A stretch of DNA of 64,000 bases from Octopus vulgaris. Lineage: Eukaryota. The number at the start of each line of letters is the position of its first letter. The first letter of the stretch is position 1. Shown piece after piece: positions 1-58,650 of the stretch. The position numbers were made by a program, and so were the translations under genes. The notes under the pieces are model-generated. The model did no database searches. It saw only the letters and a list, made by a program, of their open reading frames with translations, and was not told where the DNA came from. The stretch lies in assembly GCA_951406725.2 (NCBI GenBank), contig OX597840.1, forward strand, positions 22,816,001 through 22,880,000, in the 5' to 3' direction.

Positions 1-939
1 TGTGATATAGTGTGGGTGGCGGCGGCGGTCCTGCACAGTGTGGAGCGGGAGGTTTCGATTCTGCAGATGAGAGGGAGGGAGGAGGTGCGCTGGAGGGGAC
101 GGACGCTGGAGCTCCTCGTTCGGGCGGGGAACAAGATGTTGGGGAGCCTGCCCGATGGGATGTTTGACGAGGATGGAACGTCCATGGGAGTGTCAGTGGA
201 GGGGCGCGGACCTGGATGTTTTAAATGTGGCGAGAGGGGTCACGTCCGCTCGAACTGCTTGCGGAAGGGGAAAACCAACGAGGCCCCTCCTCAAAGTGCT
301 TCAAGCACTGGAGGGGAGAGGGCGGGAAGGGATAGCGGGACGACGACGGGCAGGGGAGCAGAGGCGGAGGATTGTATCGAACGGGTGGATTGCGCACGGG
401 TGACACACAGGGGAAGGGAGGACAGCGCCCTGGACTCCCCTCCCCAAACAAGGAGGGGATCGGCGGGCACCGCAGACATACACGCAAAGCAGGTTCCCCA
501 GCCCTACCCCCATGGCACTGTGTTCATTGGGAAGCAGTTCGCCGGGCCCCTCCCCATAGAACAGGATGTGAGGGGGTCTTTGAAAGAGAATGATAAGATC
601 GTTGCTTTTGATGAGGGAAGCGAGAGGGTGTGTAAATACTATAAATTTTCAAAATTTAAACTATTTAGCAGGGCTACAGACGTAAAAGCGGCCACTCGCT
701 TCGCAGAGATAGGGGAGGACGAGTGGAGGGAGGAAATACTACAAGAACATCTAAAGAATAGACTGATTAGAGATGTAACAAAAGAAGTACTGGAGGGTAA
801 ACTTGTTATAACCCCGGCAACCACACCTACCCAGAGCCCGGTGGCAACGCCGGTTAAGAGCCCTGCAGCTACGACCACAAGGGAGGAAGAAGGGGAAGCG
901 GGCAGATTTAAACTGTCATGCTCCCTTTCTCAACCGTAA
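1..939 (+). CDS. LINE ORF1 (gag-like, CX2CX4HX4C knuckle), 5'-incomplete, A->G hypermutated
   Basis: CFKCGERGHVRSNC; open frame to TAA at 937-939; collinear with copy B ORF1. Confidence 0.85.
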   Translation, partial: CDIVWVAAAVLHSVEREVSILQMRGREEVRWRGRTLELLVRAGNKMLGSLPDGMFDEDGTSMGVSVEGRGPGCFKCGERGHVRSNCLRKGKTNEAPPQSASSTGGERAGRDSGTTTGRGAEAEDCIERVDCARVTHRGREDSALDSPPQTRRGSAGTADIHAKQVPQPYPHGTVFIGKQFAGPLPIEQDVRGSLKENDKIVAFDEGSERVCKYYKFSKFKLFSRATDVKAATRFAEIGEDEWREEILQEHLKNRLIRDVTKEVLEGKLVITPATTPTQSPVATPVKSPAATTTREEEGEAGRFKLSCSLSQP

Positions 940-966
940 GTTCATTTATTTTTTCTCTCACCGACA

Positions 967-3900: not shown

Positions 3901-4339
3901 AGAAGTTATCGCGGCACGGAATCTCAGTGCCACCGACGTGTCCAAGGTGCGAGTTGGACGATGAAACCGTCCAGCACGCTTTTGTACACTGTCGGAAGTT
4001 GTCCGACTTGATAAGTTACGCAGAACACGTGTTATCGCATCTGGGACGAGTACAGCTGTCGGCTGAGTCTATGATTAAGATGATACCGCCAACTGGACTC
4101 TCGAAGGAAGGTGAGGCATGTTTTCACTGCACGGTTGCAGTAGTAAAAGAATGCATGTGGCGTACAAGAATGGAAGGAGTCGCGATAGGATCCTTTGTCT
4201 CGGGCCCCGGCTTGCTCACTTACTTCAGATATCATCTGAAGAGCAAAATGGGGCTGGAAAAGAGGATCTTACCACGGGGTGGTATGAGAAAAGATGGAAG
4301 GAAGTGGAAAAAAAGGTGGGTGTCAGAAACCCAGCTTAA
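967..4339 (+). pseudogene. LINE ORF2 (APE endonuclease-RT-zinc domain), frameshifted
   Basis: NVRG, ATESK, VYAPN, GDFN, YLDRIF and TDH (APE); YRPITLLN, DQSKAFD, VRQGCPLSP and YADD (RT). Frame breaks near 1325, 2200, 2311 and 4281. Confidence 0.92.
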
Positions 4340-4596
4340 CTATGGAGGGAGGAGAGGAAACAAAAGCTGCGGGGCCTTATAAATTGCCGGGGTTTAAAAC
4401 TTCGGTAAGATCGAAAGTTTATGAAATGTTATAATATTCTATTGGTCATGTAAAGGACAATTTACAGACGAATTTTTATAATGAATAATCCAAATGTTAT
4501 GGAAAATTTTTAATCGAACCTCTTAACTGTTTTTTGCATGTATGTCCTGTATTTGTCCTTCTATGTAACGATTGTATAATCATAATAAAGAAATAT

Positions 4597-4908
4597 AGAG
4601 TTAGTTCCCCTTGTCAACTCTTCCTAATTTTCTTTATTTCTTGTTCTTGTTTCTCACGCACCTTCATTGTTTGATCAGTTCCACTTGACAACTGATATTT
4701 AAGAGAAAATCCAATCAAATATACACAAATGATTGGTAATTAACTGTCTAAAGAAGCAGATACAGCATTTTCGATTATGTGGACCTGAAAAATATTAATT
4801 AACGTTTGTTGTAGAAACCTAGAAATTCTCTTGAAGCTGTCGTTGTCCACTCTGACTCCAGTTCTCACATCTTCCTCCTTCACTCTTTCTCTCCATATCT
4901 ATTACTAT
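4597..4908 (+). promoter_or_regulatory. Putative promoter and non-coding exon 1 of ZF gene 1
   Basis: GAGTTAGTTCCCCTTG motif, CCAAT (4711) and ATTGG (4732), a pyrimidine-rich exon-like tract, and donor GTAAGT at 4909. The block recurs upstream of ZF genes 2, 3 and 4. Matching acceptor TTCTTTCAG ends at 8394. Confidence 0.6.
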
Positions 4909-13321: not shown

Positions 13322-16000
13322 TCACAGGTAGAGCTTTTCGGAATGACCCCGCAGCCGACGCTCTGGAGCAGGAGTGAAGAACAGCTCTTTCGAGAGGTTA
13401 CACTTTCCGCTTATGATGTTGTGGGCGAGAATGAGATCGCCACGCCGGCGGCGTTTTTCAAGAGAATAAAGGTCGAGCGTCCTCAGCCTTTCTTCGTAGG
13501 ACAAATTTTTGAGACCATGAACCATGCGGGTAGCCAGCTTCTGGACTCTTTCGAGATGCTGTATGTCTTTGAGGAGATAAGGAGAAGAGGCTTGAATCCC
13601 ATACTCCAATATGGGTCTCACCAGCGTGACATAGAGTGGTAGGAATATGGCTGCTGTGAGCATTCCGAATGACCGTCGAATCAAGAACAGAATTCCGCAT
13701 GCTTTGTTGGCAGCATGGACGCACTGGGCCGAAGGCGAAAAGGAGGAATCCACCAAGATACCCAGGTCCTTTACCTGATCGGTCCTCTCCAGCAGCAGAC
13801 GACCCGGCTCGAAATCAAGTTGAGTTGCAGGAGTAGAGCCGACAGGCAGATGACAGCACTTTGACACGTTCAGACACAGGTCCCAATCGTTAGACCACTT
13901 CCAAATTTGGTGGAGGCATCGACGAAGATCCTCTATATTACCGTGAGGAGCGACCAGTTTGATATCGTCGGCAAATAGAAGGGTGTGTTGCGTGAGGTCG
14001 TCGGGCAAGTCATTTATGAAGACTAAGAACAACAAGGGCCCAAGCACTGAACCTTGAGGCACGCCACTGCTCGCACTGGAGACGTCAGACTGCGAACCAT
14101 TAACTTGGACTTGGAAGGAGCGATCTGAGAGGAAGGCACCAACCCATTGTATAATATCCGGATGGAAACTATATGCTTGAAGCTTGACAAGTAATAGGCG
14201 GTGGTTTACCGAGTCAAAAGCTTTGGCAAAGTCCAATAAAACGATGTCAACAGCATCACTATCATCGAGAATGCGCGTCACCAATTCTTCCATTACTAGT
14301 AAGTTGGTCAAGCATGATCTCTTCGGCACGAAGCCGTGTTGGGAATCAGAGATAGAGGCTGTGTTTAGGAGGTGGAGCATCATACTTTTCTTAAGGATGG
14401 TTTCGAACATCTTGCTGATTATTGATGTAAGGGAAACCGGTCGGTAGTTAAGCGGGTCTTCGCGGCTCCCTTTCTTGAAAATTGGGCAGATTATCGCTGT
14501 TCTCCAGTCTGCAGGTATAACACCCGTCGCCAATGACATATTGAATAGTCGTGTTAAGGGCTCGCAGATGACCGGAGCCAACGCTTTGATAACCCGTGGG
14601 TGTATGCCGTCAGGGCCATGACCCTTGTTGACATCGAGGCCTTGAATAACACGTTTGACTTCGTCCCGCGTGATGACCAATCGAAGCATTGGAGGTACCG
14701 ATCTATCAAATGGAGGGGGTTCACGACCATCATCTTGTTTGAAAATAGTTGAAAAAGCCTCGGCAAATAATTGACTGTTGATAAGGGTCCTCAATCGATA
14801 CGCCTGTTGAGTCTACCAACGTTGCAATCTGGTTGTTCAAGCGGGAATACCGCTGGACATGGGCAAAGAAGGTTTTTGGATTGCTACTGGCATTTGCCGC
14901 GATTTTGTATTCATAACTGAAGCGTTCTTTCTTTTCAATTTTCACGGCTCGGTCTCGTTGAGTTTTGTACACCTCAAAAGCTGCAGTCGAATCCAGATTT
15001 TTGAATTCAGCCCAAGCAATATCTCTGAGTCGACGTTCTTGTTTAACCTTCTTCGTCACCCAGGGCTTGTGTTTCTTCTTCTTGGGAAGCCCAACGGGAA
15101 CTGCCTGGTCAGTCAAACAGATTACATATGCTTTGAGGGATGACCATAGTTCGTCAACAGAGGACAACGTCATCAGGGATCGCCAGTCCAGAAGCGCGGA
15201 AGCCTCGGTTAGAATTTCAAGATTAATTGCAGAGAAGACTCTACGTGGCAGCGAAGTAGTCGTGGGCGTAGAAAAAGTTGTGTGCATGACGAACTTCAGG
15301 ACCGCATGATCACTCTTGGCAAGAGGGGTGCACACAGATACGTCTGACACTGATCTTGGATAGCGGGAGAATACCAGATCTAGCATAGATGGCTGCTGCC
15401 CAGACCGATGCCTTGTCGGATATTCAACATGTTGCGATAGAAAACAGTCTTCAGTCACGTCAAGAAGGGCCTGGCCGAAACGGGAAGATGTTGTACAAAT
15501 TGATGTGGGCCAATCAATCGTGGGAGCGTTGAAGTCTCCTAGTACCAAACAGTCATGCGAAGCTGAAACGAATCTTATCGCTTCGAGTAAATGAGCATCG
15601 TCCTGGGGGTTGGCAAGAGGCGGCCTGTAGACAGCCAACACGGGCAGGCAAAACTCAGATAGGCTCAGCTTGCAATAGACGGCATCGAATTTTGTTGTAG
15701 GTTGAGCATTAGTGGGTAGAATACCGCTGGACGGTTTGTGCTCAGACTTAACATACACAGCAACACCTCCACCTCGCCTTTTTCCTCTGTCACATCTGAA
15801 AACGACGTAGCCCTGCAGGTGGATTTCTGAGTCCTTTACTGCTGGAGTCAGCCAAGTCTCGGTGATAGCTATCACATCAGGGGAGTCACGTATGGCCAGT
15901 GTAAATAGTTCACTGAACTTTGGGAATAAGGAGCACGAGTTGGTGTAGACGATGCTGAGCTGTGAAGTCTGAGGGGCGGGAGTTGGGGAACAAGCAGAAT
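13322..16000 (-). pseudogene. CR1 LINE ORF2 (APE-RT), frameshift near 14790
   Basis: APE motifs in ORF 14730-16682; RT motifs in ORF 13322-14794. Confidence 0.88.
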
Positions 16001-16621
16001 AAGGGGTATCAGAGATAGCATCGTTGATGGGGGTATCGACTTCACTTCGATTTGCCCTCACATCACTTTCCCTGTCAGCACTACAGCATGGGACCAGAGG
16101 TAGGACTTGATTATCTGTCCATCTTGGATTCGTAAACCCTTCTCTCGCATTTGTTTCCTCATCTTTAGTTCGGATATTAGGTTTCTCTGGCGAATTCTCT
16201 CTCTTAGTGAGTATTCCTCGCGAAAACCCATATTGGGGTCCTCCCAGGCATGCGTCTGAGCTCTGTTCAGAAAGACTGAAGCCTCCCGATCGGAGGAGAA
16301 GATTACCCTTATTGGTATCTGAGGTTGGGTTCGCTTGGAATCTTCCTAGCCGAGCGACCTTATGGACACTGACATTTTCGTTCACAGAGAACAATTTTCC
16401 AACTAAAATGGAAACAAAATTAATGTCATCTTTTAGGCAGTTTATGCCTGTATCACAGGTGGATTCAGCTTTACCATAAATTATTGCTGATCTTGAGTGG
16501 GCAAAATGTTCTCTACTATGAGCTGCGGTATTCGATTCTTCATTGGAAGATTTCGAAAGGGTGGTTTCATAGCCATTGGACTTAGGTCGGCCTGTGGGGT
16601 CGATCGGAATGGGTTTAGTGG

Positions 16622-17491
16622 TCATAATTTTCCCGCCTGGTTTGGAACTGCACTGCCTCTTCTTCGGTTTGGGGAGCACCACTCCCCAGATGAACTCACA
16701 TCGAGATCGTTCAGAATTGGTTGAGCAATGGCATTAATGGGAAGGACAAGTGAGGGAGAATCCAAACAGATTTTATCGTGATCAGGTTTCATAGCTAAAT
16801 CTGCCCCACTGGAGTTTTGACTACGTTTCTTCTTTTGGGGAGAATAACGGTCCTCAGGTGGGTTTGAGTCTACGCTCCTCAAATTAGGTTGGGGAACCTC
16901 CGGGACCGAAAAGGCAGATGAGGAAGAATCCGCACAGGAACGATCATGTGCAGAAATGACCGCCGGTTCCTTCGCCTTCTTTGGCCGCTTCGATTTTGTT
17001 CCCTTCGGTTTGGACGTCTCCAGGGAAGAAATCAAGGGTGACTCTGCGTCAACAGGAGACTGTTTATTGTGGTCAGGTTTCATAGCTAAATCTGCCCCAC
17101 TGGAGTTTTGACTACGTTTCTTCTTTTGGGGAGAACAACGGTCCTCAGGTGGGTTTGAGTCTACGCTCCTCAAATTAGGTTGGGGAACCTCCGGGACCGA
17201 AAAGGCAGATGAGGAAGAATCCGCACAGGAACAATCATGTGCAGAAACGACCGCCGGTTCCTTCGCCATCTTTGGCCGCTTCGATTTTGTTGTCTCCAGG
17301 GAAGAAATCAAGGGTGACTCTGCGTCAACAGGAGACTGTTTATTCAGTAAGAGAGCAACAACAGACTTTAGGTGCTCGACCTCTTGTTTGAGCAACAGCA
17401 ACTGCTCGTTGAGCTGACTGTTGGTAGGACCATCATCTTGATGAGAAGCCCTACTTGCAGATCTCAGTTTCGATGCGTAGGTAGCTGACAT
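16622..17491 (-). CDS. CR1 LINE ORF1 (coiled coil plus duplicated low-complexity segment), C-terminus frameshifted
   Basis: ORF track; an internal ~90-aa tandem duplication. Confidence 0.65.
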   Translation of the reverse strand: MSATYASKLRSASRASHQDDGPTNSQLNEQLLLLKQEVEHLKSVVALLLNKQSPVDAESPLISSLETTKSKRPKMAKEPAVVSAHDCSCADSSSSAFSVPEVPQPNLRSVDSNPPEDRCSPQKKKRSQNSSGADLAMKPDHNKQSPVDAESPLISSLETSKPKGTKSKRPKKAKEPAVISAHDRSCADSSSSAFSVPEVPQPNLRSVDSNPPEDRYSPQKKKRSQNSSGADLAMKPDHDKICLDSPSLVLPINAIAQPILNDLDVSSSGEWCSPNRRRGSAVPNQAGKL

Positions 17492-17994
17492 GATGGATGG
17501 TTGACTAAAAACAATCTTCTATGGGCTCTAGGACAAATCGGAGTTAAATCAGGAACAAAAAACAGGTGCAATCCTTGTAGGAGTAGGCAGCAGCAGACAA
17601 AATCTGAGAGAGTTTGGGCTGAGCCGAATCACAATCCAAGATTGAAAGCAGACGGTGCAACAAGTCGGGAACCCTTCCTAATTGTCTGAAGCAGCTTTAG
17701 GATAAGGGATAGTATGTCCAACTTTAGAATATTGATATACATGTAAAATGTTCCACACGATTAAATATCATTTGACGTGCCATTTAGTACTTCAATAATT
17801 GCATCTGCGCGTGTTTGTATATGTGTGAATAACGTGTTTATGTGCGAGAAGGCACATGTTTTTATCTATCGTTAAGTGTCGCTGCGCTGAATGTAGTCCA
17901 GTTCTTGTAACATGAAAAAGTAAATAAACACGTAAACGATAACAATGGCTTCATATTGGTTGTCTATCCCATTAGAAGGAAACAACACATAACA

Positions 17995-18012: not shown

Positions 18013-18119
18013 AATTAATCGGAAACTGTGCCTTTACAACAAAACAGAAACACAACGAACCAGAAATTAACAAACAAAACATCGCTTCGTCTTCGGACAC
18101 ACATACACGAGGATCCAAA

Positions 18120-20760
18120 ATGGCGACCCCCGTCACCATACAGATGAATCTACATCCGATCATGAACTGGGACTCCAATGATATCGTGGAAGCGTTCAAG
18201 AAATTCAAAACTCAACTAGCTTTCAAAAGTTTCCTGAAAGGCACGACTGAAGATGAAAAGGTAAGCTATATCCTTTTATGGACGGGAGAAAAAGGCCTAG
18301 ACTTATTCAATAGCTGGGACATGTCAGAATCGGATTGCAATAACCCAGACACACTTTTAGAGAAATTTGAAAGGCACCTAGAGCCCAGATCACACCATAG
18401 AATTCATAGATACGAATTCCAGGGCCTGAAACAAGACCCACAAGAAACGATTGACAATTTCCTGTCCAGACTAAAGAATGTTGCCAAAAATTGCAAATTC
18501 AAAGATAAGGACAAAAGAATTGTTGATCAATTAATATGGGGGTGTGCTCATAAAGAAGTCCAGAAATCCCTCATAGGTAAGGACGCTCTCCAGTTGATAG
18601 AAGCAGTAGACACTGCAAGAGCATCCGAAGCCACTACCAAACAAATGGCCTCACTTACCTTACAAACAAGCTCACTAGGCAGCAGTGTAGATATTGTATC
18701 TAGGCACAGGACGAAACGTACCCGCAAACAAAGAACATGCCAGTACTGTGGTACAGAGCATGAGTTCGACAACCAGAAGAAATGTCCTGCATTCGGTACA
18801 CACTGCAAAGCATGTGGAAAACCTAACCACTGGAAAAAAATGTGTAGGTTGACAAAATCCCAGAAATACATGCCCCAATTTTCAAAGAGAAGACAAAGAG
18901 ATATACATGCACAACTACATGAACAAAACACCTCAGAGGAGGAATTCTTGGCAGTCGGCACAATAAATGTGCATGAGATGGGAAATGACGACCAGAGAAA
19001 AAATGAGGCATACACAACAATAAGAATACAAAAGAAGTCTGGCAAGAAACGAATAAACATTGACTTAAGGCTGATGATTGACACTGGAGCCCAGAGTGAT
19101 ATCTTGCCTGTCAACCTCCACAAAAAGTTGTTCCCAGAACACATGACACAAGAGGATAAAATCAAAGAAGGAATCCTCACACCAAGTGATGTAATCCTCA
19201 CTGCGTACGGAGGTACCAGGATTCCACAACTGGGTAAAACAACAATCACAGGGACACACAAAGGAAAAACAATCAATTCTTGGACTCAATACCTGCAAAA
19301 AGCTAAATATTGTGTCAATCAATGGTGAAGTGAAGGCAACTCCGAGCAGGATTGACAGAGATATGCCTATCAAAGACCGACCACCATTAACAAACAAAGA
19401 GGAACTGATAAGCATGTACTCTGAATGCTTTGACAATACAGTCGGGTGCTTTGTGAAATGTCGATACCATATAACAGTCGACCCCAATATCAAACCAATT
19501 GTTCACCCACCTCGCCGCGTCCCTCTAGAACTAAAAGAGAAGCTGAAGACAGAGTTGGACAGAATGGAAAAAAAGAAATAATCACCAAAGTGACACGACC
19601 AACAGACTGGGTGAATTCAATTGTAATCAAGGAAAAACCCAATGGTACCCTACGGATATGCCTCGACCGAAGGGATCTGAACAAAGCATTAAAAAGAGAG
19701 TACCATCCAATTCCAACCCTTGAAGAAATCACACCATCATTGGCTGGATCCAAATTATTCAGCAAACTGGATGCCAGCAATGGGTACTGGAATGTAAAGA
19801 TGGACAAAGAGTCATCCATGCTCACTACCTTCAACACACCATTTCGCAGATATCGATTCAACCGACTCCCATTTGGATTGAAGATGAGCCAAGATGTTTT
19901 CCAGCGCCGAATAGATGAGACCTACCAAGGCTGCAAGGGAGCAATTGGAATAGCAGATGACATCCAAGTGCATGGCAAGGATGAGACCACACATGACTTC
20001 AATTTACATGAAGCTATGGAGAAAACCCGACAAGCAGGCATCAAACTCAATGCGGACAAGTGTGTGATAAGAGAAATGGAGTGCAAATTCTTTGGAATTA
20101 TATACTCTGCAGAGGGAGTGAAACCAGACCCCGCTAAAGTGGAAGCCATCAGAGACATTAAAGAACCTAAAGACAAGAAGGAACTCAGGAGCTTCCTGGG
20201 ACTCATCCACTACATGGGAGCCTTCATACCCAAGCTGGCCGATCACACTGCAAATCTCCGAGAACTAAACAAAGATGACGTAGAGTTTGATTGGTGTGCT
20301 TCACACACACAGTATTTCAAAGCAATCAAAAAGCTCATCAGTAAGGAGACAACTCTGCAATACTATGACAGACGCAAACCAGTAACACTCCAAGTCGATG
20401 CTTCTATGAGAGGAGTTGGTGCAGCACTGATACAGGAAGGTAAACCCATTGCATATGCCTCGAAAGCTCTCTCGCCCACAGAGACAAGGTACGCAAATAT
20501 TGAAAGGGAACTCCTGACAGTAGTATATGGATGTGAATAGTTCCATACATACCTGTATGGAAGATATTTCAATAGTGAAACAGACCATCGCCCGCTAGAA
20601 CAAATACATAGAAAAAAACCTGACAAAAGCACCAGCCAGACTGCAAAGATTACTGTTAAGGCTTCAAACATACAACTATGATATCAGGTACAAGCCAGGA
20701 AAAGACCTGATATTGGCAGATGTTCTTTCCAGACTATCCTCACATGATAAATAGGAGATG
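18120..20760 (+). pseudogene. Gypsy gag-pro-pol, frameshifted and truncated
   Basis: Double knuckle CQYCGTEH...CPAFGTHCKACGKPNHWKKMC; protease IDTGA; RT LPFGL and IADDI; RNase H VDAS and YANIERELL. Confidence 0.88.
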
Positions 20761-21469
20761 GAAGGACTAAGCATAAAGGTCCACCACATTATAAATGTAA
20801 CAACCACCCATCAGCAGACAACGTGTACAACACCTGCTGCATCAGTGACAACACCCACAGAATCATCATCCCAATGGGCACCAACCACTCACATACACCC
20901 ACCAGATGGAGAAAGAACATCCTGCCACCGGTTCGATACCGTTAAAGAAAAAATATTTTCTCTTTTTATTCATGATAAAGTGTTTTCAAAAAAAAAAATT
21001 AAATTAAAAGATAAATAACTAATTCTGCTCGATTACAAAGCAGAGGCAGAATAATCTCACGGTTTCTGCTGCAGGATGGCCACCTCACGCTGACAATCCA
21101 TTAGAGTAAGGGAGACTACTATATTTGTCTTCATTGCCAAAAGACCCCTTTTTTTTCAAGAAGAAAAGATGTTACACATTCATATATATGCGTGGGCGTG
21201 CGTGTGTGGAATACGTCCCCGCTTTTGGCACTATTTTATAAGTATTACTACGCTGTGTCTAAAGTTATAAGTGTCGCTGCGCTGAATGTAGTCCAGTTCT
21301 TGTAACATGAAAAAGTAAATAAACACGTAAAAGAATAACTATGCTTCGTATTAAGTTGGTTATCCCGTTGGAACGAAACTACACATAACAGTGATGAAGC
21401 CGAGTATTGAAGAAATCTCTTTCACAAAATACCAAATCTATTAAAGTAAAGCCGCAATTCTTTAAAGAC

Positions 21470-21792
21470 TGGAGTTAGTTCCCTTTGTTCATTGTCAAAA
21501 CTCTTCCTAATTAAGTGTATTTCTTGTTCTTGTTTCTCACGCACCTTGATTGTTTGATCAGTTCCACTTGACAACTGATATTTAAGAGGAAAACCCAATC
21601 AAATATATACAAATGATTGGTAATTAACTGTCTAAACAAACAGATACAGCATTTACGATTATGTGGACCTGAAAAATATTAATTAACGTTTGTTGTAGAA
21701 ATCTAGAAATTCTCTTGAAGCTGTCGTTGTCCACTCTGACTCCAGTTCTCACATCTTCCTCCTTCACTCTTTCTCTCCATATCTATTACTAT
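21470..21792 (+). promoter_or_regulatory. Putative promoter and exon 1 of ZF gene 2 (no Tx1 insertion)
   Basis: GGAGTTAGTTCCCTTTG, CCAAT boxes and donor GTAAGT at 21793; acceptor CTTTCAG ends at 26372. Confidence 0.6.
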
Positions 21793-22736: not shown

Positions 22737-25506
22737 GGTACTTGTCTATTGTCGTGGTCCCGGTTTCGCACACGCGAATTCGCGCGCACGCGCGCCAGAC
22801 GTAGGTACTCGATACTCGAGATCCTACGAGGTGACTTGCGCATGCGCGTTAACACCCCCCCCCTAAAAAAAAGGTGTTGGATTTCACTAAAAATATATGT
22901 GTGTGTGTGTGTATATATAACATTTTCAATTTTACACAAAAAAATTACATAGTCGCTTTCCTCGCGGATTTACAGATAAATGAATTAATTACTATTTTAC
23001 AGAATAAAATTAATGAATTAATTATATAAATTAAATAATTCTTGAAAATTAATTAATATTAATAATATTTTTTGAACAAAGTAAATAATTTATAAAACTT
23101 GGTTAATAATTTCTTTTACACAAACGCGAACGTATATAATTTGTGAAACTTTTTTTTTTTACAGACGTATATAATTTGGTAAACTTAATGAATTAATTTC
23201 TTCTCATCATCATCATCGTTTAACGTCCGTTCTCCATGCCAGCATGGGTTGGACGGTTCGACCGGGGATCTGGGAAGCCAGAAGGCTGCACCAGACTCCA
23301 GTCTTATCTGGCAATGTTTCTACAGCTGGATGCCCTCCCTAACGCCAACCACTCCGAGAGTGTAGTGTGTGCTTTTTACATGCCACCCGCACAGGTGCCA
23401 GGCGAGGCTGGCACGGCCACGGTCGGATTGGTGCCAGTCGAGCGGCTCTGGCATCGGCCACGATTCAGATAGTGCTTTTTACGTACCACCAGTCCAGGGG
23501 TCCTGGCATTTGCCGGGTGCCACACTTGCCCCAACATGTCTTCGCAAGCAAAGGGGGTTGGCATGGGTGCCTGTCGTGGGATGAGGTTCGATATCAACTT
23601 CGCTTGCCTCAACAGGTCTTTGTGTATAAATGTATAAATTTTTCGCACTAAATTCTTTCCGTAGAATTTATCAAAAAACGCGCAAAATTATTCCGTAGAA
23701 TTTATCAAATTAAAAAACGCAAAATTAATATATTTTTTGAAATTGCAAATTATTTAGAATATAAAACAAATGAAGTTAAATTTTAAAAATAAATGTCATA
23801 TACTTATACTCTGTAAGGTGCTGTGTTCACACTTCAATTTACTATTTTCTAGAAATGTTGCTTTTCTAATTGAAACAATTTTTCTCAATCTCCATTTAAA
23901 AGTCCACCATGCCTCTTGAGCCATATCAAAATGAACTTTGAATTACGCGGCGGCGGTGGTGGTGTGAGGTTCTAATTTTTTTTTTCTGATCTCTCTTTGC
24001 CCCCCTAGATGGAGGTGTGGTGGGGAGACAGATGAAAGATGTTTCATTCTCTGCTATATATGTATATATATATATATATATATTTCTTAAACCTACACGA
24101 TATAGTCTATAAATTTGGGATGTTTTTGAAAGATAATATATTTTGTCATCAGAATATATATACTTTCTCACACTACAATTAAGATATATTTATTTTAAAT
24201 CGTTCATCTTTTCCCGCGACAACAAAAATTGGGCGCGAAAATTTTTCTAAATATTAGCGGAATGAACAACTGAGATAAAGAGAGATCAGAAAAAAAAATT
24301 AGAACCTCACACCACCACCGCCGCCGCGTAATTCAAAGTTCATTTTGATATGGCTCAAGAGGCATGGTGGACTTTTAAATGGAGATTGAGAAAAATTGTT
24401 TCAATTAGAAAAGCAACATTTCTAGAAAATAGTAAATTGAAGTGTGAACACAGCACCTTACAGAGTATAAGTATATGACATTTATTTTTAAAATTTAACT
24501 TCATTTGTTTTATATTCTAAATAATTTGCAATTTCAAAAAATATATTAATTTTGCGTTTTTTAATTTGATAAATTCTACGGAATAATTTTGCGCGTTTTT
24601 TGATAAATTCTACGGAAAGAATTTAGTGCGAAAAATTTATACATTTATACACAAAGACCTGTTGAGGCAAGCGAAGTTGATATCGAACCTCATCCCACGA
24701 CAGGCACCCATGCCAACCCCCTTTGCTTGCGAAGACATGTTGGGGCAAGTGTGGCACCCGGCAAATGCCAGGACCCCTGGACTGGTGGTACGTAAAAAGC
24801 ACTATCCGAATCGTGGCCGATGCCAGAGCCGCCTCGACTGGCACCAATCCGACCGTGGCCGTTGCCAGCCTCGCCTGGCACCTGTGCGGGTGGCATGTAA
24901 AAAGCACACACTACACTCTCGGAGTGGTTGGCGTTAGGGAGGGCATCCAGCTGTAGAAACATTGCCAGATAAGACTGGAGTCTGGTGCAGCCTTCTGGCT
25001 TCCCAGATCCCCGGTCGAACCGTCCAACCCATGCTGGCATGGAGAACGGACGTTAAACGATGATGATGATGAGAAGAAATTAATTCATTAAGTTTACCAA
25101 ATTATATATGTCTGTAAAAAAAAAAAAAGTTTCACAAATTATATACGTTCGCGTTTGTGTAAAAAAAATTATTAATATTAATTAATTTTCAAGAATTATT
25201 TAATTTATATAATTAATTCATTAATTTTATTCTGTAAAATAGTAATTAATTCATTTATCTGTAAATCCGCGAGGAAAGCGACTATGTAATTTTTTTGTGT
25301 AAAATTGAAAATGTTATATATACTCACACACACACACACATATATTTTTAGTGAAATCCAACACCTTTTTTTTGGGGGGGGGGGGGTTAACGCGCATGCG
25401 CGAATTCTGCACTGCGCATGCGCAAGTCACCTCGTAGGATCTCGAGTATCGAGTACCTACGTCTGGCGCGTGCGCGAAACCGGGACCACGACAATAGACA
25501 AGTACC
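22737..25506. mobile_element. Foldback-type non-autonomous DNA transposon, probably Merlin-family
   Basis: Inverted arms 22737-23998 and 24277-25506 begin GGTACTTGTCTATTGTCGTGGTCCCG. A 9-bp TSD TTTTTTCAT lies at 22728-22736 and 25507-25515. Confidence 0.88.
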
Positions 25507-36059: not shown

Positions 36060-36181
36060 AGGTGTCGCAGCGCTGTAAGTAGCGCAGTTCGTGTAACATG
36101 GAAAAGTAAATAAACACGTAAAAGAATAACTATGCTTCGTATTGAGTTGTCTATCCCATAAGAACGAAATAACACATAACA
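36060..36181 (+). mobile_element. LTR 3' part (R/U5), related to the Gypsy LTRs
   Basis: GTGTCGC.GCGCTG...AAGTAAATAAACACGTAAAAGAATAACTATGCTTCG...CACATAACA, similar to 21270-21390. Confidence 0.75.
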
Positions 36182-38921: not shown

Positions 38922-39199
38922 AATTCTCGAACGCAAAAATTTCTAAAAATTCCCCCAAATAAAAATATGTGACGAGGGATTATATTAGGTGCTTAAAGCA
39001 GCACTCCACACACACAAAAATTAAATAAATTAGAAAAACATATTAATTCTAAATTTTAATGATGCAGAAGAACCACCAGAAATAAAGACTTCCCATTTCT
39101 CAAATAGAAGCCGTTCCATTTCCTCTAGTTACGATATTTGCTTTTCGTTTCAGTATTTCAAGTGCACACTCGTATTTTTATACATTCCCCATTTCTTAT

Positions 39200-39335
39200 A
39201 AAGACAAGACTTAGTTCCCCTTGTTCACAGTGAATCCTTGCTAATCTTGTTGCTCCGTATGCATTGCTTGCTCAGTTCCACTTTACAACTGATATTTAAG
39301 AGAAAATCTAATTAAATAGACACGTGATTGGTAAT
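39200..39335 (+). promoter_or_regulatory. Orphan, diverged copy of the ZF promoter (empty Tx1 site)
   Basis: AAGACAAGACTTAGTTCCCCTTGTT...CAGTTCCACTTTACAACTGATATTTAAGAGAAAA...TGATTGGTAATT. Confidence 0.5.
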
Positions 39336-44629: not shown

Positions 44630-44945
44630 ATAGTAATAGATATGGAGAGAAAGAGTGAAGGAGGAAGATGTGAGAACTGGAGTCAGAGTGGACAACGACA
44701 GCTTCAAGAGAATTTCTAGATTTCTACAACAAACGTTAATTAATATTTTTCAGGTCCACATAATCGTAAAGGCTGTATCTGTTTGTTTAGACAGTTAATT
44801 ACCAATCATTTGTATATATTTGATTGGGTTCTCCTCTTAAATATCAGTTGTCAAGTGGAACTGATCAAACAATGAAGGTGCGTGAGAAACAAGAAATACA
44901 CTTAATGAGGAGAAGTTTTTACAATGAACAACGGGAGCTAACTCC
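44630..44945 (-). promoter_or_regulatory. Putative promoter and exon 1 of ZF gene 3 (no Tx1 insertion)
   Basis: Minus-strand GGAGTTAGCTCCCGTTG, CCAAT boxes, donor at 44629. Confidence 0.6.
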
Positions 44946-45346
44946 ACTCTTTAAAGAATTGCGGCTCTACTTTTATAGATTTGGGATTTTGTGAAAGATG
45001 TTTCTTTGATAATTTTGTCTCATAAATTATTATTATTGTCATTATTACCAATCCTGCCGAATCTTTTCTGTTTGGCTGCACATATGGAAATTTTTAATAA
45101 TTCACATATATATATATATATTATAATTATATATATATTTATGTATCTATATATATACTCTTTTATTCTTTTACTTGTTTCAGTCATTTGACTGCGGCCA
45201 TGCTGGAGCACCGCCTTTAGTCGAGCAAATCGACTCCGGGACTTATTCTTTGTAAGCCCAGTACTTATTCTATCGGTCTCTTTTGCCGAACCGCTAAGTG
45301 CCAGGGACGTAAACACACCAGCATGCAATGCTAGCGGGACAAACAC

Positions 45347-49223: not shown

Positions 49224-50933
<1,710 letters not shown>

Positions 50934-52993
50934 CTCTTCAAGAAAAAATAAAATCGATCCTTCAAGTTGTACAGATCAACAACTTTTCAATAATATTTCT
51001 TCTCTCACCAAAATATATGGATATTTTGCATCTTTTTGCTTTTATAGTTTATTCCAAACAAATATCACTTCTCTTATATTTGTTCTAAATGTGATCAATG
51101 CCAATATTTAAAAATGTTGCAAATACTCTTTGGAAATCCATCAAAGTATATTTAAAAGAGAAAATTATCTCTTGCACATTTCAGACACAGAAGTAAAGAA
51201 ATGCTTTCTCTCTCAGAGGAAATATTTTACTGTAACTCAGCAATGTTGTATAGAAGCAGGATTATACGTTTGTAGAATATCTTTGCAGAGTCTTTCAAAC
51301 ATGATACATATTGATGATTCTTTAAAAGTAAAAAATACTTTTTAGCCAATTTCATGTGATTTTCTGAAAGAATAGAAAAAATAATATAAGACATCAAGTA
51401 TGTTTAAAAGGCAGATATTCAAAAGTGCAAATTTACGACATTTCTGTTTTCATAAATTGTAGAAGTAATTCTTTATCTGAAGTATTAAATTCATCCAATT
51501 TCTGCATTACCAAAATGTTTATATCATAGAGTAGACACATCTATAATAATACCAACTCCTGGAATATAAAGTCTGTCATAGACACACTTCAACACACACA
51601 CACACACACACACACCAATATACATATAAATGACACTAGATTTCTGATGTTTTCTTGTATCTTTGTTTGCTAAAATAGATATCGCTCTTTCTCTACCTTT
51701 ATCATCATCGTTTAACGTCTGCTTTCCACACTGGCATGGGTTGTGAGGTTTGACTGAGGACTGGCAAGCCATGAGGCTGAACAAGGTTCAATCTTATCAG
51801 GCAAGATTTCTACAGCTGGATGCTGTTTGAGCGTGTAGTGGTTGCCTTTTATGTGCCACAGAGCCAGTCAGGTAGCATTGGCATCGACCATGCTTGAATG
51901 GTGCTTTGTATGTGCCACCGGCATGGGTGCAAGTCAGGCATCACTAGCATCAATCATGCTCGAATGGTACTTTTTACATGCCACCTGCATGGGAGCCATA
52001 TACACAAATGCATATATATATATATATACGGTTAGCTCAACGTTAATATTTTGTTGAGCATAAAAGATGAATAAATGTCAGTAAATAATATTGATGTCTC
52101 TATAACAGCATCAAAATCATTAGTGTGGAAATTTTAATGTAGGAAAAATTATTGGTTGATGTGGAGAATGAAAGCCAGATTCCTCCAAAGAGTTTGGCAC
52201 GTCCTGAAGAAGGCAACGTGCTGTTCAAATGACACCTTGCCATTTCTTTCTCAGGGAGGGCCTAGTCTATGTCTCCCCTCGTCCTGCAAGCCCAGAGGAA
52301 CTTAAGCAGAGAATTATTACCATACTGGTCGTGAGATGTGCGAAAAATAACAGCTAAATAGCTCATAAATCACAGTTGATTGTTTTCTTTTTTTGGTTGC
52401 ATGACCGAACGAATTCTCGTACGCAAAAATTTCTGAAAATACCCCAAAATAAAAATATGTGACGAGGGATTATAGTAGGTGCTTAAAGCAGCACTCCACA
52501 CACACAAAAATTAAATAAATTAGAAAAACATATTAATTCTAACTTTTAATGATGTAGAAAAACCACCGGAAATAAAGACTTCCTATGTTTCAAATAAAAG
52601 CTGTTCCATTTCCTCTCGATACGATATTTGCTTTTCGTTTCAGTATTTCAAGTGCACACTCGTATTTTTATACATTCCCCATTTCTTACTAATTGCATCG
52701 TAATTTTCCCGCATTTAACGAAATTGTCGAATTTACACGTTAGAAAGAAAGATAAATGTTATCTAAACAAGGGATTGATCCGACGTTTTTACAAATAATT
52801 TAGAAAATAACCAAAAGTGCAATGAAATGTCTAAAAGAAAACGACAACACAATGAAAGTATTAAAATTACAGCCTTTCGTATAATTTCGTCTTAGTGAGA
52901 TTTTTTTTCCTTTTAACTTTCTCAACACATCGAAACAAATAAATGTACATAATACGACACATATATAATAGAAATGTTTAAATAAATACTTAC

Positions 52994-53299
52994 ATAGTAA
53001 TAGATATGGAGAGAAAGAGTGAAGGAGGAAGATGTGAGAACTGGAGTCAAAGTGGACAACGACAGCTTCAAGAGAATTTCTAGGTTTCTACAACAAACGT
53101 TAATTAATATTTTTCAGGTCCACATAATCGTAAATGCTGTATCTGTTTCTTTAGACAGTTAATTACCAATCATTTGTATATATTTGATTGGGTTTTCTCT
53201 TAAATATCAGTTGTCAAGTGGAACTGATCAAACAATGAAGGTGCGTGAGAAACAACAAGAAATACACTTAATTAGGAAGACTCAACAAGGGGAACTAAC
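52994..53299 (-). promoter_or_regulatory. Putative promoter and exon 1 of ZF gene 4
   Basis: Reverse complement of 4597-4908; donor at 52993. Confidence 0.6.
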
Positions 53300-53559
53300 T
53301 CCATATTTCTTTATTATGATTATACAATCGTTACATAGAAGGACAAATACTGGACATACATGCAAAAAACAGTTAAGAGGTTCGATTAAAAATTTTCCAT
53401 AACATTTGGATTATTCATTATAAAAATTCGTCTGTAAATTGTCCTTTACATGACCAATAGAATATTATAACATTTCATAAACTTTCGATCTTACCGAAGT
53501 TTTAAACCCCGGCAATTTATAAGGCCCCGCAGCTTTTGTTTCCTCTCCTCCCTCCATAG

Positions 53560-56500
53560 TTAAGCTGGGTTTCTGACACCCACCTTTTTTTCCACTTCCT
53601 TCCATCTTTTCTCATACACACCCCGTGGTAAGATCCTCTTTTCCAGCCCCATTTTGCTCTTCAGATGATATCTGAAGTAAGTGAGCAAGCCGGGGCCCGA
53701 GACAAAGGATCCTATCGCGACTCCTTCCATTCTTGTACGCCACATGCATTCTTTTACTACTGCAACCGTGCAGTGAAAACATGCCTCACCTTCCTTCGAG
53801 AGTCCAGTTGGCGGTATCATCTTAATCATAGACTCAGCCGACAGCTGTACTCGTCCCAGATGCGATAACACGTGTTCTGCGTAACTTATCAAGTCGGACA
53901 ACTTCCGACAGTGTACAAAAGCGTGCTGGACGGTTTCATCGTCCAACTCGCACCTTGGACACGTCGGTGGCACTGAGATTCCGTGCCGCGATAACTTCTC
54001 GCGAACAGGTAAAGCATTCCTATAGCACTGCCAGGTCAGGGATCTTTGGAAATTATCCAAATACCCCGTCCTGAAAGTCTTTTTAAACAGGTTGGTAAGC
54101 TGGTCTTCGTCAAACCCCAGAGCCCCTCCTAGGACGTCGTCGTTCTTTGCCTCTACCAGCCTTCTATAAAATACCGAGGTGGTATTTCCGCAGCCGGCCT
54201 TGCCCGCCTTGTGGATCAGCGTGAGTGCCTGTCGGCACTCCTTTTGCCATAAAGTCAGTTTCCATCTTTTGATGCGACCGGGTTTAAAATTCACTAAGGA
54301 GGCCGGTCTCGGGAAAAATTCCCCTGCCAGCGGACTCCACACCTTATCACCCTCCAGGTGGTGCCAGAGATGCTTCAGCCTCAACGCATGTCTGCGCATC
54401 ATCAGCCAAGGCATTCCTAACCCACCCTTTAACGGTTCCTGGCAGCAAACGGAGCGCCTCACAAGTGGCTTTCCTCCCTTCCACAAAAAGCGGAAAAGGA
54501 TTCGCTCCAACTTGCTAAGCCATGAATCGGGGCAAGGGACAACGGTCAGGCGGTAAGTGATTACAGATGCAATGAACATCTGTACCACCTCCGCCCTTCC
54601 TTTCAAGGACAGAAACCTTCCGGACCAGGTCCGTACTATGGCCTCCACCTTGCTCGTCACCTCACTCCAGTTCCTCTCCGTTTGGGAGTCTGGCCCAAAC
54701 CAAACTCCTAGCAACTTAACAGGGCCATCCGTCCAGTGTCCCACGACACTGGACGATATCGACTTGCTCCTCCAGGTGCCGAGGCGCAAGCCAACCGACT
54801 TGTCCTTGTTAACCTTTGCTCCTGCCACCGCCTCGTATCCTCTGATAGCCTCTTCCACACAAGGTAGCTGGGCCTCATTGGACACGATGAGGGTGACGTC
54901 ATCCGCATAAGCAGTAACCGTTCTCCCACCTCCGATCTCATCCGAGTTACTTCCCAGCCTCTCCAACTTTCGCAGCAATGGCTCAAGAGGCAACACGTAC
55001 AAAAGTGGTGACAAGGGGCACCCTTGACGAACTGAACATTCGATCGAAAACGGTTCCGTTAGGTAACCGTTTATCTGGACGGTGGACTTGATGCCGCTAT
55101 ACATAGCGGAGATCCACCCGCGAAATTCAGGGCCCAGTCCAGCCGCTTCGAGGACTGTCGCCAGGTACTCATGGTCTACCCTATCGAACGCTTTACTTTG
55201 GTCTAAATGGACCATTACCCCGCCCTTGCCGGTTAATTTACCCACCCTATCTAAGGTGTAGCGTATAAGGTGAAGATTGTCCTGGATCGACCTGCCTGGA
55301 ATTGCACATGTCTGTGCTCTCCCTATAAGTTTCTCCACGACAACCGTCAACCTTTTTGCCAACACCTTGGCCAAAATCTTTAACTCTACATTAAGTAGAG
55401 TTATGGGCCTGTAGTTACTAATGTTATCCCCCTTGCTCGGGTCTTTCTGGATTAGCGTCACCACTCCCCGGCTTACAGAACTGGGAATTCTCCCATTCTG
55501 CTGCCAGTTCGTGTAGACGCCTGCCAATATTCCCCCGAACAAGTCCGGCATACTTTGGTAAAACTCGTAGGGCAGACCATCCAACCCCGGCGCATCCGGC
55601 CAGTATCCCCTCTATCTCCGCGGGAGTGATCGCTTCTTCACAGCACTCCACCTCACGCCCCGAGAGCCGCGGTCCGCCGGCTAGGAAGTCCTTTAAGGTC
55701 CTCCCCCGCTCCGGCGCCACACCACCCCCGAACACGCGGGCGAAATGCTGGTGAAGAAACTTTTGCATCTCCTCCTGTCCATAGATCTTTTGTCCCTGTT
55801 CGTCAGTTAAAGACTTGATTGAGGCTTTGTTACCTCTCTGACTCTCCGCTCGACGGGCCCATCCGGCAACGTTAATACCTTCTCGTTTCGCAGCGCGTAG
55901 CTTAGCTCTGACTCTGCAACCTTCGTGTTTGGAGTTAAGGTGACGGTACAATACCGTTCTTGCCGCCATCACTCCGGATGCAGAGCCAGCTTCCATTGCC
56001 TCGTTTAGATTCTTAACTAAATTGTCCTCTATCCTATTCCTATCTAACCTTAGCTGATTGCTAATTCTAATGGACTCTGAACGAATGGCTCTTTTGAGGG
56101 AGTGCCACCATCTATTGTTAATGATGGTGCCACACAATGCCCTCTGTACTAACACCTTAATCCGGGTACGGAAGTCTTCACAATTCAAAATAGCCTTGTT
56201 CAGCTTGCAGTACCCGGGTCCCTGTCTATGACACTTATCTAATTGCATCCTACACGTCACAAATTTGTGATCCGTGTAAGGCACAATGTGAAACTGTGGA
56301 CAACTAAACGTATCCTTATCTCTTTTCTTAATAAATATCCTATCTAAATACGATCTGTGTGAGCCGTCGTTGTTACTCCACATCCACTGTGGAACGCTCG
56401 GCTCATCCAGTCGGTAACGGTCCACTAGATCAAAGCTCTCTAGTAGACCCTTGAGGCTAGGGTTCCCCTTCCTATTGGTTGAGCCAACACTGTCGACCCG

Positions 56501-56935
56501 CGCTTCAAGGACAGTGTTAAAGTCCCCTACTAGGATTACCGTTTTCGACATCGCTAAAAAGGGCTCCAGGTTCCGAAAAAAACCCGTCTGCCTACACTCA
56601 TTCGGAGCGTAGACAGCTACCAACCTGAAGGACTGTTTACTTACGTGGGTCACATCCAGAACAACCAGCCTGCCTTCTGGGTCCAGAAAGACAGTACTTA
56701 CCTGCAAGTCCAAGCTCTTCCTGATAAGGACTGATACGCCTCTGCCTCTTCCTCGGCTAGGAGAAATAAATTTCTCGAACCCATTTAGAAGAGGCGAGAA
56801 CGCTTGGGCCTCGTTCATCTTGGACTCGGTTGCAATAGCTATGTCCACTCCATGTGTCGTGAGGTCGTTCAGGAAACAAATTTGTTTCCATTTCGACCCC
56901 ATTCCACGTACATTCACACAACCCAGCTTAGCCAT
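53560..56935 (-). pseudogene. LINE ORF2 (APE-RT-zinc domain), one frameshift near 55590
   Basis: ORFs 55424-56935 and 53560-55584. Confidence 0.92.
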
Positions 56936-56962
56936 TGTCGGTGAGAGAAAAAATAAATGAAC

Positions 56963-58398
56963 TTACGGTTGAGAAAGGGAGCATGACAGTTTAAATCTGC
57001 CCGCTTCCCCTTCTTCCTCCCTTGTGGTCGTAGCTGCAGGGCTCTTAACCGGCGTTGCCACCGGGCTCTGGGTAGGTGTGGTTGCCGGGGTTATAACAAG
57101 TTTACCCTCCAGTACTTCCTTTGTTACGTCTCTTATCAGTTTATTCTTTAGATGTTCTTGTAGTATTTCCTCCTTCCACTCGTCTTCCTTTATTTTTGCG
57201 AAGCGAGTGGTTGCTTTTATGTCTGTAGCCTTGCTAAATAGTTTAAATTTTGAAAATTTATAGTATTTATATACCCTCCCGTTTTTTTCATCAAATGCTA
57301 TGATCTTATCATTTTTTTAAAAAGACTTTTTCACATCTTGTTTTATGGGGAGGGGCTTGGCGAACTGTTTTCCAATGAATACAGTGCCGTGGGGGTAGGG
57401 CTGGGGAATTTGCTTTGTGTGTATGTCTGCGGTGCTTGCTGATTTTTTCCTTGTTTGGGGAGGGGAGTCCAGGGTGTTGTCTTTTTTTCTTTTGTGTGTC
57501 ACCTGTGTGTAATCCATTTGTTCGATACAATCCTCCGTTTCTGTTTCTTTGCTTGTCGTCGTCTTGTTTTCTTTTTCCGCCTTCTCCCCTTCAGTGTTTG
57601 AAGCACTTTGAGGAGGGGCTTCGTTGGTTTTCTTTTTTTTTAAGCAGTTCGAGCGGACGTGACCCTTCTCGCCACATTTAAAGCACCTAGGTCTGCGTCC
57701 CTCCACTGACACTCTCATGGACGTTCCATCCTCGTTAAATATCCTATCGGGCAGGTTCTCCAATATCTTGTTTTCTGCCTGAACGAGGAATTCCAGCGTC
57801 TGTCCCTTCCAGCGTACCTCCTCTTTCCTTCTCATCTGCAGAATCGAAACTTCCCGCTCTACATTGTGCAGGACCGCCGCTGCTACCCACATTATATCAT
57901 ACCCTCTCGGTATGTCCTCTACCAGCAGTTTAGCTGTTCTTTTTCCCATATACGAGGGTAGCAACATGATATCATCATTTTTCAGGGTCATTGATGACAC
58001 CTCTCTTGCTACCTCAGCCGAGTCAAAATGTGCTTCAACAGTAGCGCTGCGAGCACCTCGAACGACATGGCGAATTTTGTCCCACACCGGGACAAGCACT
58101 TTTCGACTATCTCGTTTCTAACGTCCATAATTTTTTTTTCTTTGTAGCTATACACTTTGTATATAACTGTCTTTTCCTTTATTTCTTGTACCTTCGCTTG
58201 CGGCGGTACAAGTTTGATTTCGTTTCCTTCCATTTTTACAAAGTTCCGAAATTCGAATAGTTGTTCGATCTTGAATTCAACGTCCATCATGGTTCCGCCT
58301 ACCGCGGCCGAAAAAGACTGTTTTTTTACTTCAGTGTCCTTTAATTCACTTGTTCCCATCGCGGGAAAATCATTCTTCGACGCCAAGTCGAAATCCAT
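56963..58398 (-). pseudogene. LINE ORF1 (CCHC), frameshift in an A-run near 58135 and TAA at 57317
   Basis: MDFDLASKNDF start; VEGRRPRCFKCGEKGHVRSNC. Confidence 0.85.
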
Positions 58399-58650
58399 TT
58401 CTCAAAAATGTTTCAAAAATTACCTCGAAGGTAATAACAATTTTAAACACAGAATTTTCTGACCCGTAGGGCGAAAATTACCGTTACACAACGGGCACTG
58501 TTCAATTAACAATTAACAACAAACAACGATGAGCAAAAAGTCGAACTCTCTCAACAAAAGGCAGCAAATTTCTCAAAACGCAGATGAAAGTTAACAAGGG
58601 GAACTAACCCTTGTCTTGAAATGTTAACGGCTTTACTGATATATATTTGA

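Follow-up and report, generated by a model that had tools for sequence, protein, structure and literature searches.

A LINE family of Octopus vulgaris that repeatedly lies about 30 nt downstream of TATA-like boxes, including those of zinc-finger genes

Long interspersed nuclear elements (LINEs) with known target specificity insert into ribosomal DNA (rDNA), genes for small nuclear RNA (snRNA) or transfer RNA (tRNA), microsatellites and other transposons. In Octopus vulgaris, C2H2 zinc-finger (ZF) genes that lie in a cluster raise the question of whether the promoter of a protein-coding gene can serve in the same way, and which of its features would mark the spot. The cluster is carried by a 64,000-nt window of contig C27 (OX597840.1, positions 22,816,001 to 22,880,000), in a genome of 2.8 Gb and 227 contigs; coordinates given without a contig are positions in this window, L-numbers denote loci fetched from the genome, C-numbers contigs and X-numbers sequencing runs. 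Here a full-length LINE of 5.3 kb, copy B (53300-58592, minus strand), stands in a ZF promoter between two copies of a 16-nt motif, which a preliminary description of the locus proposed as the target of the family. We find that most full-length copies of this young family follow a TATA-like box at a distance of about 30 nt, in sense orientation, and that the motif is better read as the sequence found at about TATA+31.

Insertion points and TATA-like boxes

The target-site duplication that bounds copy B is exact, as had been described: both its 5' copy (58593-58608) and its 3' copy, which remains ahead of the ZF gene (53284-53299), match the motif on the minus strand without a mismatch, and the 5 nt preceding the duplication are not alike on the two sides. 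In agreement with the earlier proposal, the host retains one copy of the motif and the LINE acquires one. A TATA-like box with one mismatch, read from the sequence at 58638-58645 (minus strand), lies ~33 nt upstream of the insertion point and now precedes the LINE; the same type of flank (L139, L141, L142) was scored in the TATA test described below. With further matches carrying 1-2 mismatches at 4600-4615, 21474-21489, 39210-39225 and 44927-44942, the window holds six occurrences of the motif against 0.65 expected, a number attained in none of 100 shuffles. Across the genome, the 16-nt version has 54 exact matches (none for the control), 50 of which fall in C27 and in one C2 array, that is, in two ZF clusters.

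Two empty promoters reveal what the motif accompanies. At 21439-21489 (plus strand) a TATA-like box at 21439 is followed by the insertion point at 21470 and the motif at 21474-21489, and at 44927-44977 (minus strand) a consensus TATA box starts at 44977 ahead of the motif at 44927-44942; at both sites the insertion point lies 31 nt from the start of the box. The statement that the LINE-free motif keeps one promoter position therefore holds for 21474 and 44927 and fails for 39210, which belongs to a diverged promoter fragment (39197-39225, plus strand) with a TATA-like box just 13 nt before the motif. In L144, a paralog of this diverged type, the LINE lies at TATA+30 and away from the motif, a case that is suggestive only, since the sequence at the L144 insertion also resembles the motif.

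A second LINE, copy A (1-4594, plus strand), has its 5' end left of the window (L052) and a clean 19-nt duplication, the 5' copy of which lies just beyond the window edge and the 3' copy at 4595-4613 (plus strand). Its reported ending at the motif agrees with the match at 4600-4615, with the correction that the duplication comprises these 19 nt. Copies A and B had been suspected of being one insertion plus a duplication. They are 99-100% identical in the 3' half, but only 82-88% identical in the first 1.3 kb, and their 5' flanks, at 52% identity, are unrelated, which largely excludes this origin. A 14-nt deletion that they share recurs in L145, L118 and L144 (5 of 29 distinct copies) and was for that reason ruled out as proof of duplication, and the short promoter deletion offered as a sign of it also occurs in empty promoters (L079 and the C2 array). 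True duplicates do exist, namely three C2 copies, L011/L017 and L145/L015.

Of the ZF promoter copies in hand, 20 of 40 are occupied, 16 lying directly after a LINE 3' end and four after an ORF1-only partner element considered below; because five of the 40 loci were taken in for carrying a LINE, this is a high estimate. The LINE copies at these promoters derive from three lineages, begin at six or more different positions (full length, 1935, 3978, 4820, 5142 and 5221) and form about ten types of junction. The evidence supports the conclusion that this point has been struck repeatedly by independent, sense-oriented insertions. At three further C27 loci (L165, L167, L172), other sequence replaces the upstream flank of the promoter exactly at the LINE insertion point. 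On C9 (L146, C9:48067000-48074500), a ZF-promoter fragment of ~130 nt is followed by an ORF1-only-like element joined directly after the second initiator-like hexamer (located at ~53221-53226 in the copy B promoter), possibly a transduced piece of promoter. Unrelated insertions on C27 (L011, L017) and C18 (L117) share the truncation position ~3978, which suggests a truncation hot spot or a truncated source.

We considered how far these sites represent the family as a whole. A search of the genome for the family's 3'-end pattern gave 62 places, of which 60 regions were fetched. ZF promoters on C27 and C2 hold 19 of the 62 ends, a single target class with more than 20% of the flanks, the share that PMC4494074 uses to call a Tx1 family sequence-specific, and 43 lie outside them, mostly in unrelated sequence; 11 of the 62 fall in a hammerhead (retrozyme-like) repeat, and the remainder are divided among a satellite of 500 bp, arrays of tandem copies and single sites. 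The preliminary description had expected 3' junctions across the family to be enriched in the motif and had named random flanks as the contrary outcome, which was found in part. When 53 copies were examined for target duplications, 41 had a credible one; two of these, inner tandem copies, were set aside, and the other 39 collapse into 22 non-redundant classes. The 12 copies with no recognisable duplication stood outside the first TATA count, L149 being restored in a later one.

A class passed the TATA test if a match to the consensus with at most one mismatch started 26-35 nt upstream of the duplication. Nine of the 22 classes passed, compared with 122 of 1540 control windows (7.9%), the antisense test gave 0 of 22, and the profile of box positions peaks at -32 to -29. 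With two more classes the count becomes 10/24 overall and 8/14 for full-length copies. A new class (L247/L265) has its TATA box at -31, and L150, with two CCAAT boxes and an AT-rich box below the threshold, was scored as a miss. Because the TATA idea arose from the first sites seen, later sites matter; among the held-out classes, 4 of 15 pass (p=0.026).

A search with the 5'-end pattern (80 places) exposed 32 unexamined copies of another subfamily, 31 of them inserted at the same aligned position in a diverged form of the retrozyme-like repeat and the other a tandem copy. Twenty of the 31 pass the TATA test and together were counted as one class. Their LINE 3' ends are 96.6% alike as against 74% for the flanks (medians, 22 copies), which marks them as independent insertions. 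Of 29 reconstructed sites, 16 match a descriptor of the type I hammerhead core ~25 nt further downstream, with stems that vary; an Rfam search of the repeat returned no hammerhead match, and L233 gave simple-repeat noise only. The dispersed repeat that flanks L091, L096 and L231-L264 combines this type I hammerhead core with a TATA-like box and a conserved block upstream, and in this it is similar to a retrozyme that has a promoter of the snRNA type. LINE copies or arrays also occupy the 500-bp tandem satellite and two other repeats (L112, L267, L102/L246, L120); the satellite has a consensus TATA box, and the two other host repeats are similar downstream. Tandem LINE arrays at single sites are found on C1, C3, C6, C20 and C27. 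None of this points to RNA polymerase III (Pol III) tRNA genes: an Rfam search of seven target loci found no family, and the ZF targets are spliced, protein-coding genes.

Inherited prefixes and borrowed promoters

The first bases after the element track lineage and not locus in a tree of 60 3' ends, where clades that share their first target bases at unrelated loci have support of 100/100, 100/100 and 99/91. As related copies share labels, this pattern shows inheritance and not cause. Of the endonucleases of 37 copies, two are broken and the other 35 show 91-98% identity, and a hairpin loop that aligns with the targeting loop of L1 does not vary among four of the five lineages, which have different targets. 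With five prefix lineages served by such similar enzymes, it appears doubtful that the endonuclease sets a single target sequence. Extra bases at the 3' junction fit the lineage prefix, and not the local base, in L101, L125, L148, L150, L092 and copy B, and likewise fit the prefix in L191, L195 and L198.

Two smaller elements carry the tail of the LINE. The first, a tRNA-like short interspersed nuclear element (SINE) of ~230 bp, has 22,023 pattern matches genome-wide; of 20 copies sampled, 15 carry a 5-nt prefix particular to the SINE, and the first base of that prefix overrides the local base at several unique sites. The SINE (L211-L230) also builds 184-bp tandem arrays and often inserts into itself. 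The second is the ORF1-only partner, 1691 nt long, with duplications and a single open reading frame (ORF) of 333 amino acids that shows a CCHC pattern by eye, contains no reverse transcriptase (RT) and has no match in Pfam. HAL1 is a single-ORF element mobilised in trans, and the partner has the features of such a HAL1-like, ORF1-only element. It sits at the same ZF promoter point as the LINE, three times in tandem with it, and its family (L181, C27:22931927-22933619; L182-L210) occupies tandem arrays, the ZF site and other repeats.

Comparison by eye of the 5' heads of dispersed copies indicates where transcripts of the parent elements are likely to begin. L103, L109 and L118 start with the duplication of a C3 array (L265/L098), and L104 starts with the target in the satellite. 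Since parent duplications head these four daughters, transcription of the parents likely began at the 5' duplication or immediately ahead of it, at ~TATA+30. A splice-donor reading of the L104 flank was dropped, as the flank is ORF2 of another LINE.

Contigs assembled from the sequencing runs were taken as RNA by guess and cannot reveal start sites. In one X7 contig the motif follows directly on a LINE 3' end, and one X5 contig joins the ZF promoter at 21507 to a LINE 5' end, ~18 nt past the usual junction; to this extent the suggested read-through between LINE and ZF gene has support, subject to the guessed RNA status. The X5 junction is unmatched among the fetched genome copies and possibly represents a polymorphic insertion. 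A step in contig depth downstream of the motif was not used as a start-site marker, again owing to that guess. Both CCAAT boxes previously assigned to the upstream promoter lie within contig-covered stretches, so that such a role is at most putative.

Explanations for the insertion pattern

We think it somewhat probable that the family combines borrowing of host TATA promoters, homing by RNA ends and a bias towards TATA-promoter DNA. Insertion leaves a duplication of 10-24 nt, and the host thereby keeps its start-region sequence while the LINE gains a copy together with the upstream TATA box. Transcription would then begin near the 5' duplication, so that daughters inherit the parent's duplication as a 5' head, as seen in the four dispersed copies. 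We suggest that the RNA, having no poly(A), may end a few bases into the 3' duplication and that these bases pair with the next target; such pairing would make the prefix heritable by lineage, and the lineage pattern itself is observed. If nicking favours open TATA-promoter DNA, lineages could move to new promoter homes, the ZF cluster being one multicopy home that the ORF1-only partner also uses.

Several observations weigh against this account. 5'-truncated singletons have no TATA excess (1/10; Fisher p=0.033 against full-length copies), and seven of these ten come from one lineage, which confounds truncation with lineage. A TATA box is found at one of eight SINE sites and in one of four classes of the partner, which adds one miss with no duplication. 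The scoring window was picked after the first sites, the held-out result is modest, and 11 fetched copies with no recognisable duplication and the two inner tandem copies stand outside the count. The single-copy TATA sites are putative promoters, and the start at TATA+30 is a prediction. X1 and X5 contigs, from two studies, extend across the TATA box as well as the motif at the empty promoter of 21474, which implies that molecules (or DNA) begin upstream of the predicted start. Finally, a few lineage-specific endonuclease residues lie outside the hairpin loop.

One alternative shares promoter borrowing and RNA-end homing with the favoured account and differs from it only in having no insertion bias. 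In this scheme RNA-end microhomology acts alone: only the few copies that happen to reach a promoter start are transcribed and found lineages, which then home to paralogs of the founder site. We regard it as doubtful. In its favour, the truncated singletons and the SINE sites stand at background, every lineage has a multicopy or tandem home, and the SINE displays choice of prefix without a TATA box. On the other hand, one founder per lineage leaves about five extra unrelated TATA sites (L092, L109, L144, one of L147/L148 and one of L102/L112), and at least five lineages within ~10% divergence each found a TATA+30 home.

We hold as tentative a further possibility, that the integration complex is tethered to TBP/TFIID or to the open complex, with nicking of the template strand at +1. 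The LINE would thereby capture a TATA promoter, return a duplicate start sequence to the host and hand down to its daughters a memory of its last home through read-through RNA ends.

The reading with which the locus was first described, sequence-specific recognition of the 16-nt ZF promoter motif by the endonuclease, as Keno recognises U2, now appears improbable. The ten or so junction types at one motif, the concentration of exact matches in two ZF clusters, a private substitution near the endonuclease N-terminus of the ZF lineage and the motif-like bases that begin dispersed copies of this lineage (L092, L116, L146) are in its favour, but 43 of 62 3' ends lie elsewhere, five different prefixes are served by near-identical endonucleases with the same loop in four of five lineages, L144 disregards the motif, and the site also serves an older lineage and the ORF1-only partner. 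Spread of a few insertions by segmental duplication, gene conversion and hitchhiking on host repeats is very improbable and largely refuted: although there are clear duplicates, and copies A and B agree in their 3' halves and 14-nt deletion, the 5' end points in ZF promoters number six or more, identity is higher between LINEs than between the flanks (98% against 94% for B and L141, besides the retrozyme class), and the deletion recurs in three lineages.

Copy B among its neighbours and known systems

Copy B lacks poly(A) and has the same orientation as the ZF gene, as first described, and both its ORFs are broken. All its features lie on the minus strand and were assigned from reading frames and a domain search. 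A 5' untranslated region of ~190 nt precedes the ATG of ORF1 (57317-58398), which is interrupted and has a zinc knuckle on its C-terminal 266-amino-acid piece. ORF2 survives as a first piece with an APE-type endonuclease (55424-56935) and a second with RT and zf-RVT (53560-55611), placed in different frames by the 14-nt deletion, which lies between short direct repeats.

This domain content (an ORF2 with APE endonuclease, RT and C-terminal zinc-binding domain, and a separate ORF1), together with duplications mostly of 10-24 nt and 5' truncation at many end points, is that of the L1/Tx1 group. The nearest solved RT is that of human L1 ORF2 (E 4e-45), followed by R2 (3e-24). The domain order of ORF2 matches the homolog BAC82613.1, which is not linked to any named family, and the best named ORF2 homologs, from lancelet, fish and cnidarian, are 30-42% identical, none being labelled Tx1. 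A zinc-knuckle ORF1 and the absence of a poly(A) tail characterise the Tx1 clade, and both are present here. The earlier term Tx1-like is thus secure as to the L1/Tx1 type, and judged from sequence features the family likely belongs to the Tx1 clade proper.

The host gene, also on the minus strand, consists of a promoter-proximal region with non-coding exon 1 (52994-53283, from sequence and contigs), a GT..AG intron 1 (51364-52993) and a C2H2 zinc-finger coding frame (49797-50915). Contigs from four of four runs (RNA status guessed) link 52994 to 51363 across the intron and corroborate the reported distance of ~300 bp between motif and exon-1 donor, the motif being 291 nt from the donor at 52993. 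The ZF cluster also contains a different LINE on the minus strand (13322-17518), with endonuclease and RT frames that look CR1/L2-like by eye. A long terminal repeat (LTR) retrotransposon with broken gag, protease and RT frames occupies 18015-20540, and a short repeat flanking it recurs near 36060-36180. The gene that the 21474 promoter precedes has in its intron 1 a 1.3-kb inverted repeat with arms 92% identical (22737-25506).

The preferred targets of Tx1 families are U2, microsatellites and other transposons, and transcription from the flank has been suggested for these families (PMC4494074). Named members (Keno at U2, Kibi and Koshi at microsatellites, Tx1 at Tx1D, Tx1-Mar at Mariner-N4) share with the octopus family an ORF2 with APE, RT and zf-RVT, a zinc-knuckle ORF1, multicopy targets, tandem insertion and a partner SINE. 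They differ in having one sequence target each, set mainly by the endonuclease, whereas the octopus family uses five or more unrelated targets with a TATA-like box at about -30, one of which precedes protein-coding genes. Dictyostelium TRE5, TRE3 and NLTR-A and yeast Ty3 choose a fixed distance from a promoter landmark and not a sequence, and TRE5 is an APE-type LINE whose ORF1 contacts TFIIIB (PMC5006619). These elements target Pol III (tRNA) genes, while the candidate landmark in octopus is the TATA-like box of ZF genes and other repeats, at a fixed distance in 10/24 classes and 8/14 full-length ones, yet in only 1/10 truncated singletons.

R2 of 28S rDNA resembles the octopus LINE, as interpreted here, in its co-transcription with the target and in the strengthening of specificity by flanking target RNA (PMC4494074), but has a restriction-like endonuclease and one fixed site, in contrast to an APE-type enzyme and a prefix that varies by lineage. 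Drosophila HeT-A also forms head-to-tail arrays with a promoter supplied from upstream (PMC5537684); it is telomeric and uses the 3' untranslated region of its neighbour, whereas the 1.7-kb octopus partner has the same tail as the LINE and occupies host promoter sites. Metazoan non-LTR retrozymes are few-hundred-nt repeats with a type I hammerhead core, resembled by the octopus repeat with its putative core, and the accounts of them differ from the present case, where such a repeat serves as a LINE target (PMC7229834). Thirteen recently active L1-Tx1 families appear in a repeat annotation made for Octopus vulgaris, the accessible part of which does not describe their targets (PMC13282606). PMC12513265 mentions neither 'promoter' nor 'Tx1', and the accessible parts of PMC4758252, PMC3747384, PMC4889948 and bioRxiv 10.64898/2026.07.22.740005 contain nothing further on the question. 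A LINE at TATA+30 of genes transcribed by RNA polymerase II (Pol II) was not found described in the accessible literature outside Repbase Reports and most subscription journals.

If true, the settling of a LINE at TATA+30 of genes that encode proteins would carry position-specific insertion beyond Pol III promoters to those of Pol II, and tethering of the integration complex, should it prove correct, would make this the first LINE position-specific for Pol II core promoters. The lineage-heritable prefix, set beside a SINE with the same tail and another prefix, offers a natural test of RNA 3'-end pairing against the endonuclease, a question that bears on reprogrammable retrotransposon insertion. 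For the octopus, about half of the sampled ZF promoters are severed from their TATA box by inserts of 1.7-7 kb, which connects transposons in a concrete way with how a recently expanded ZF cluster is regulated; under tethering, the promoters of this expanded C2H2 zinc-finger cluster would have been repeatedly rewired.

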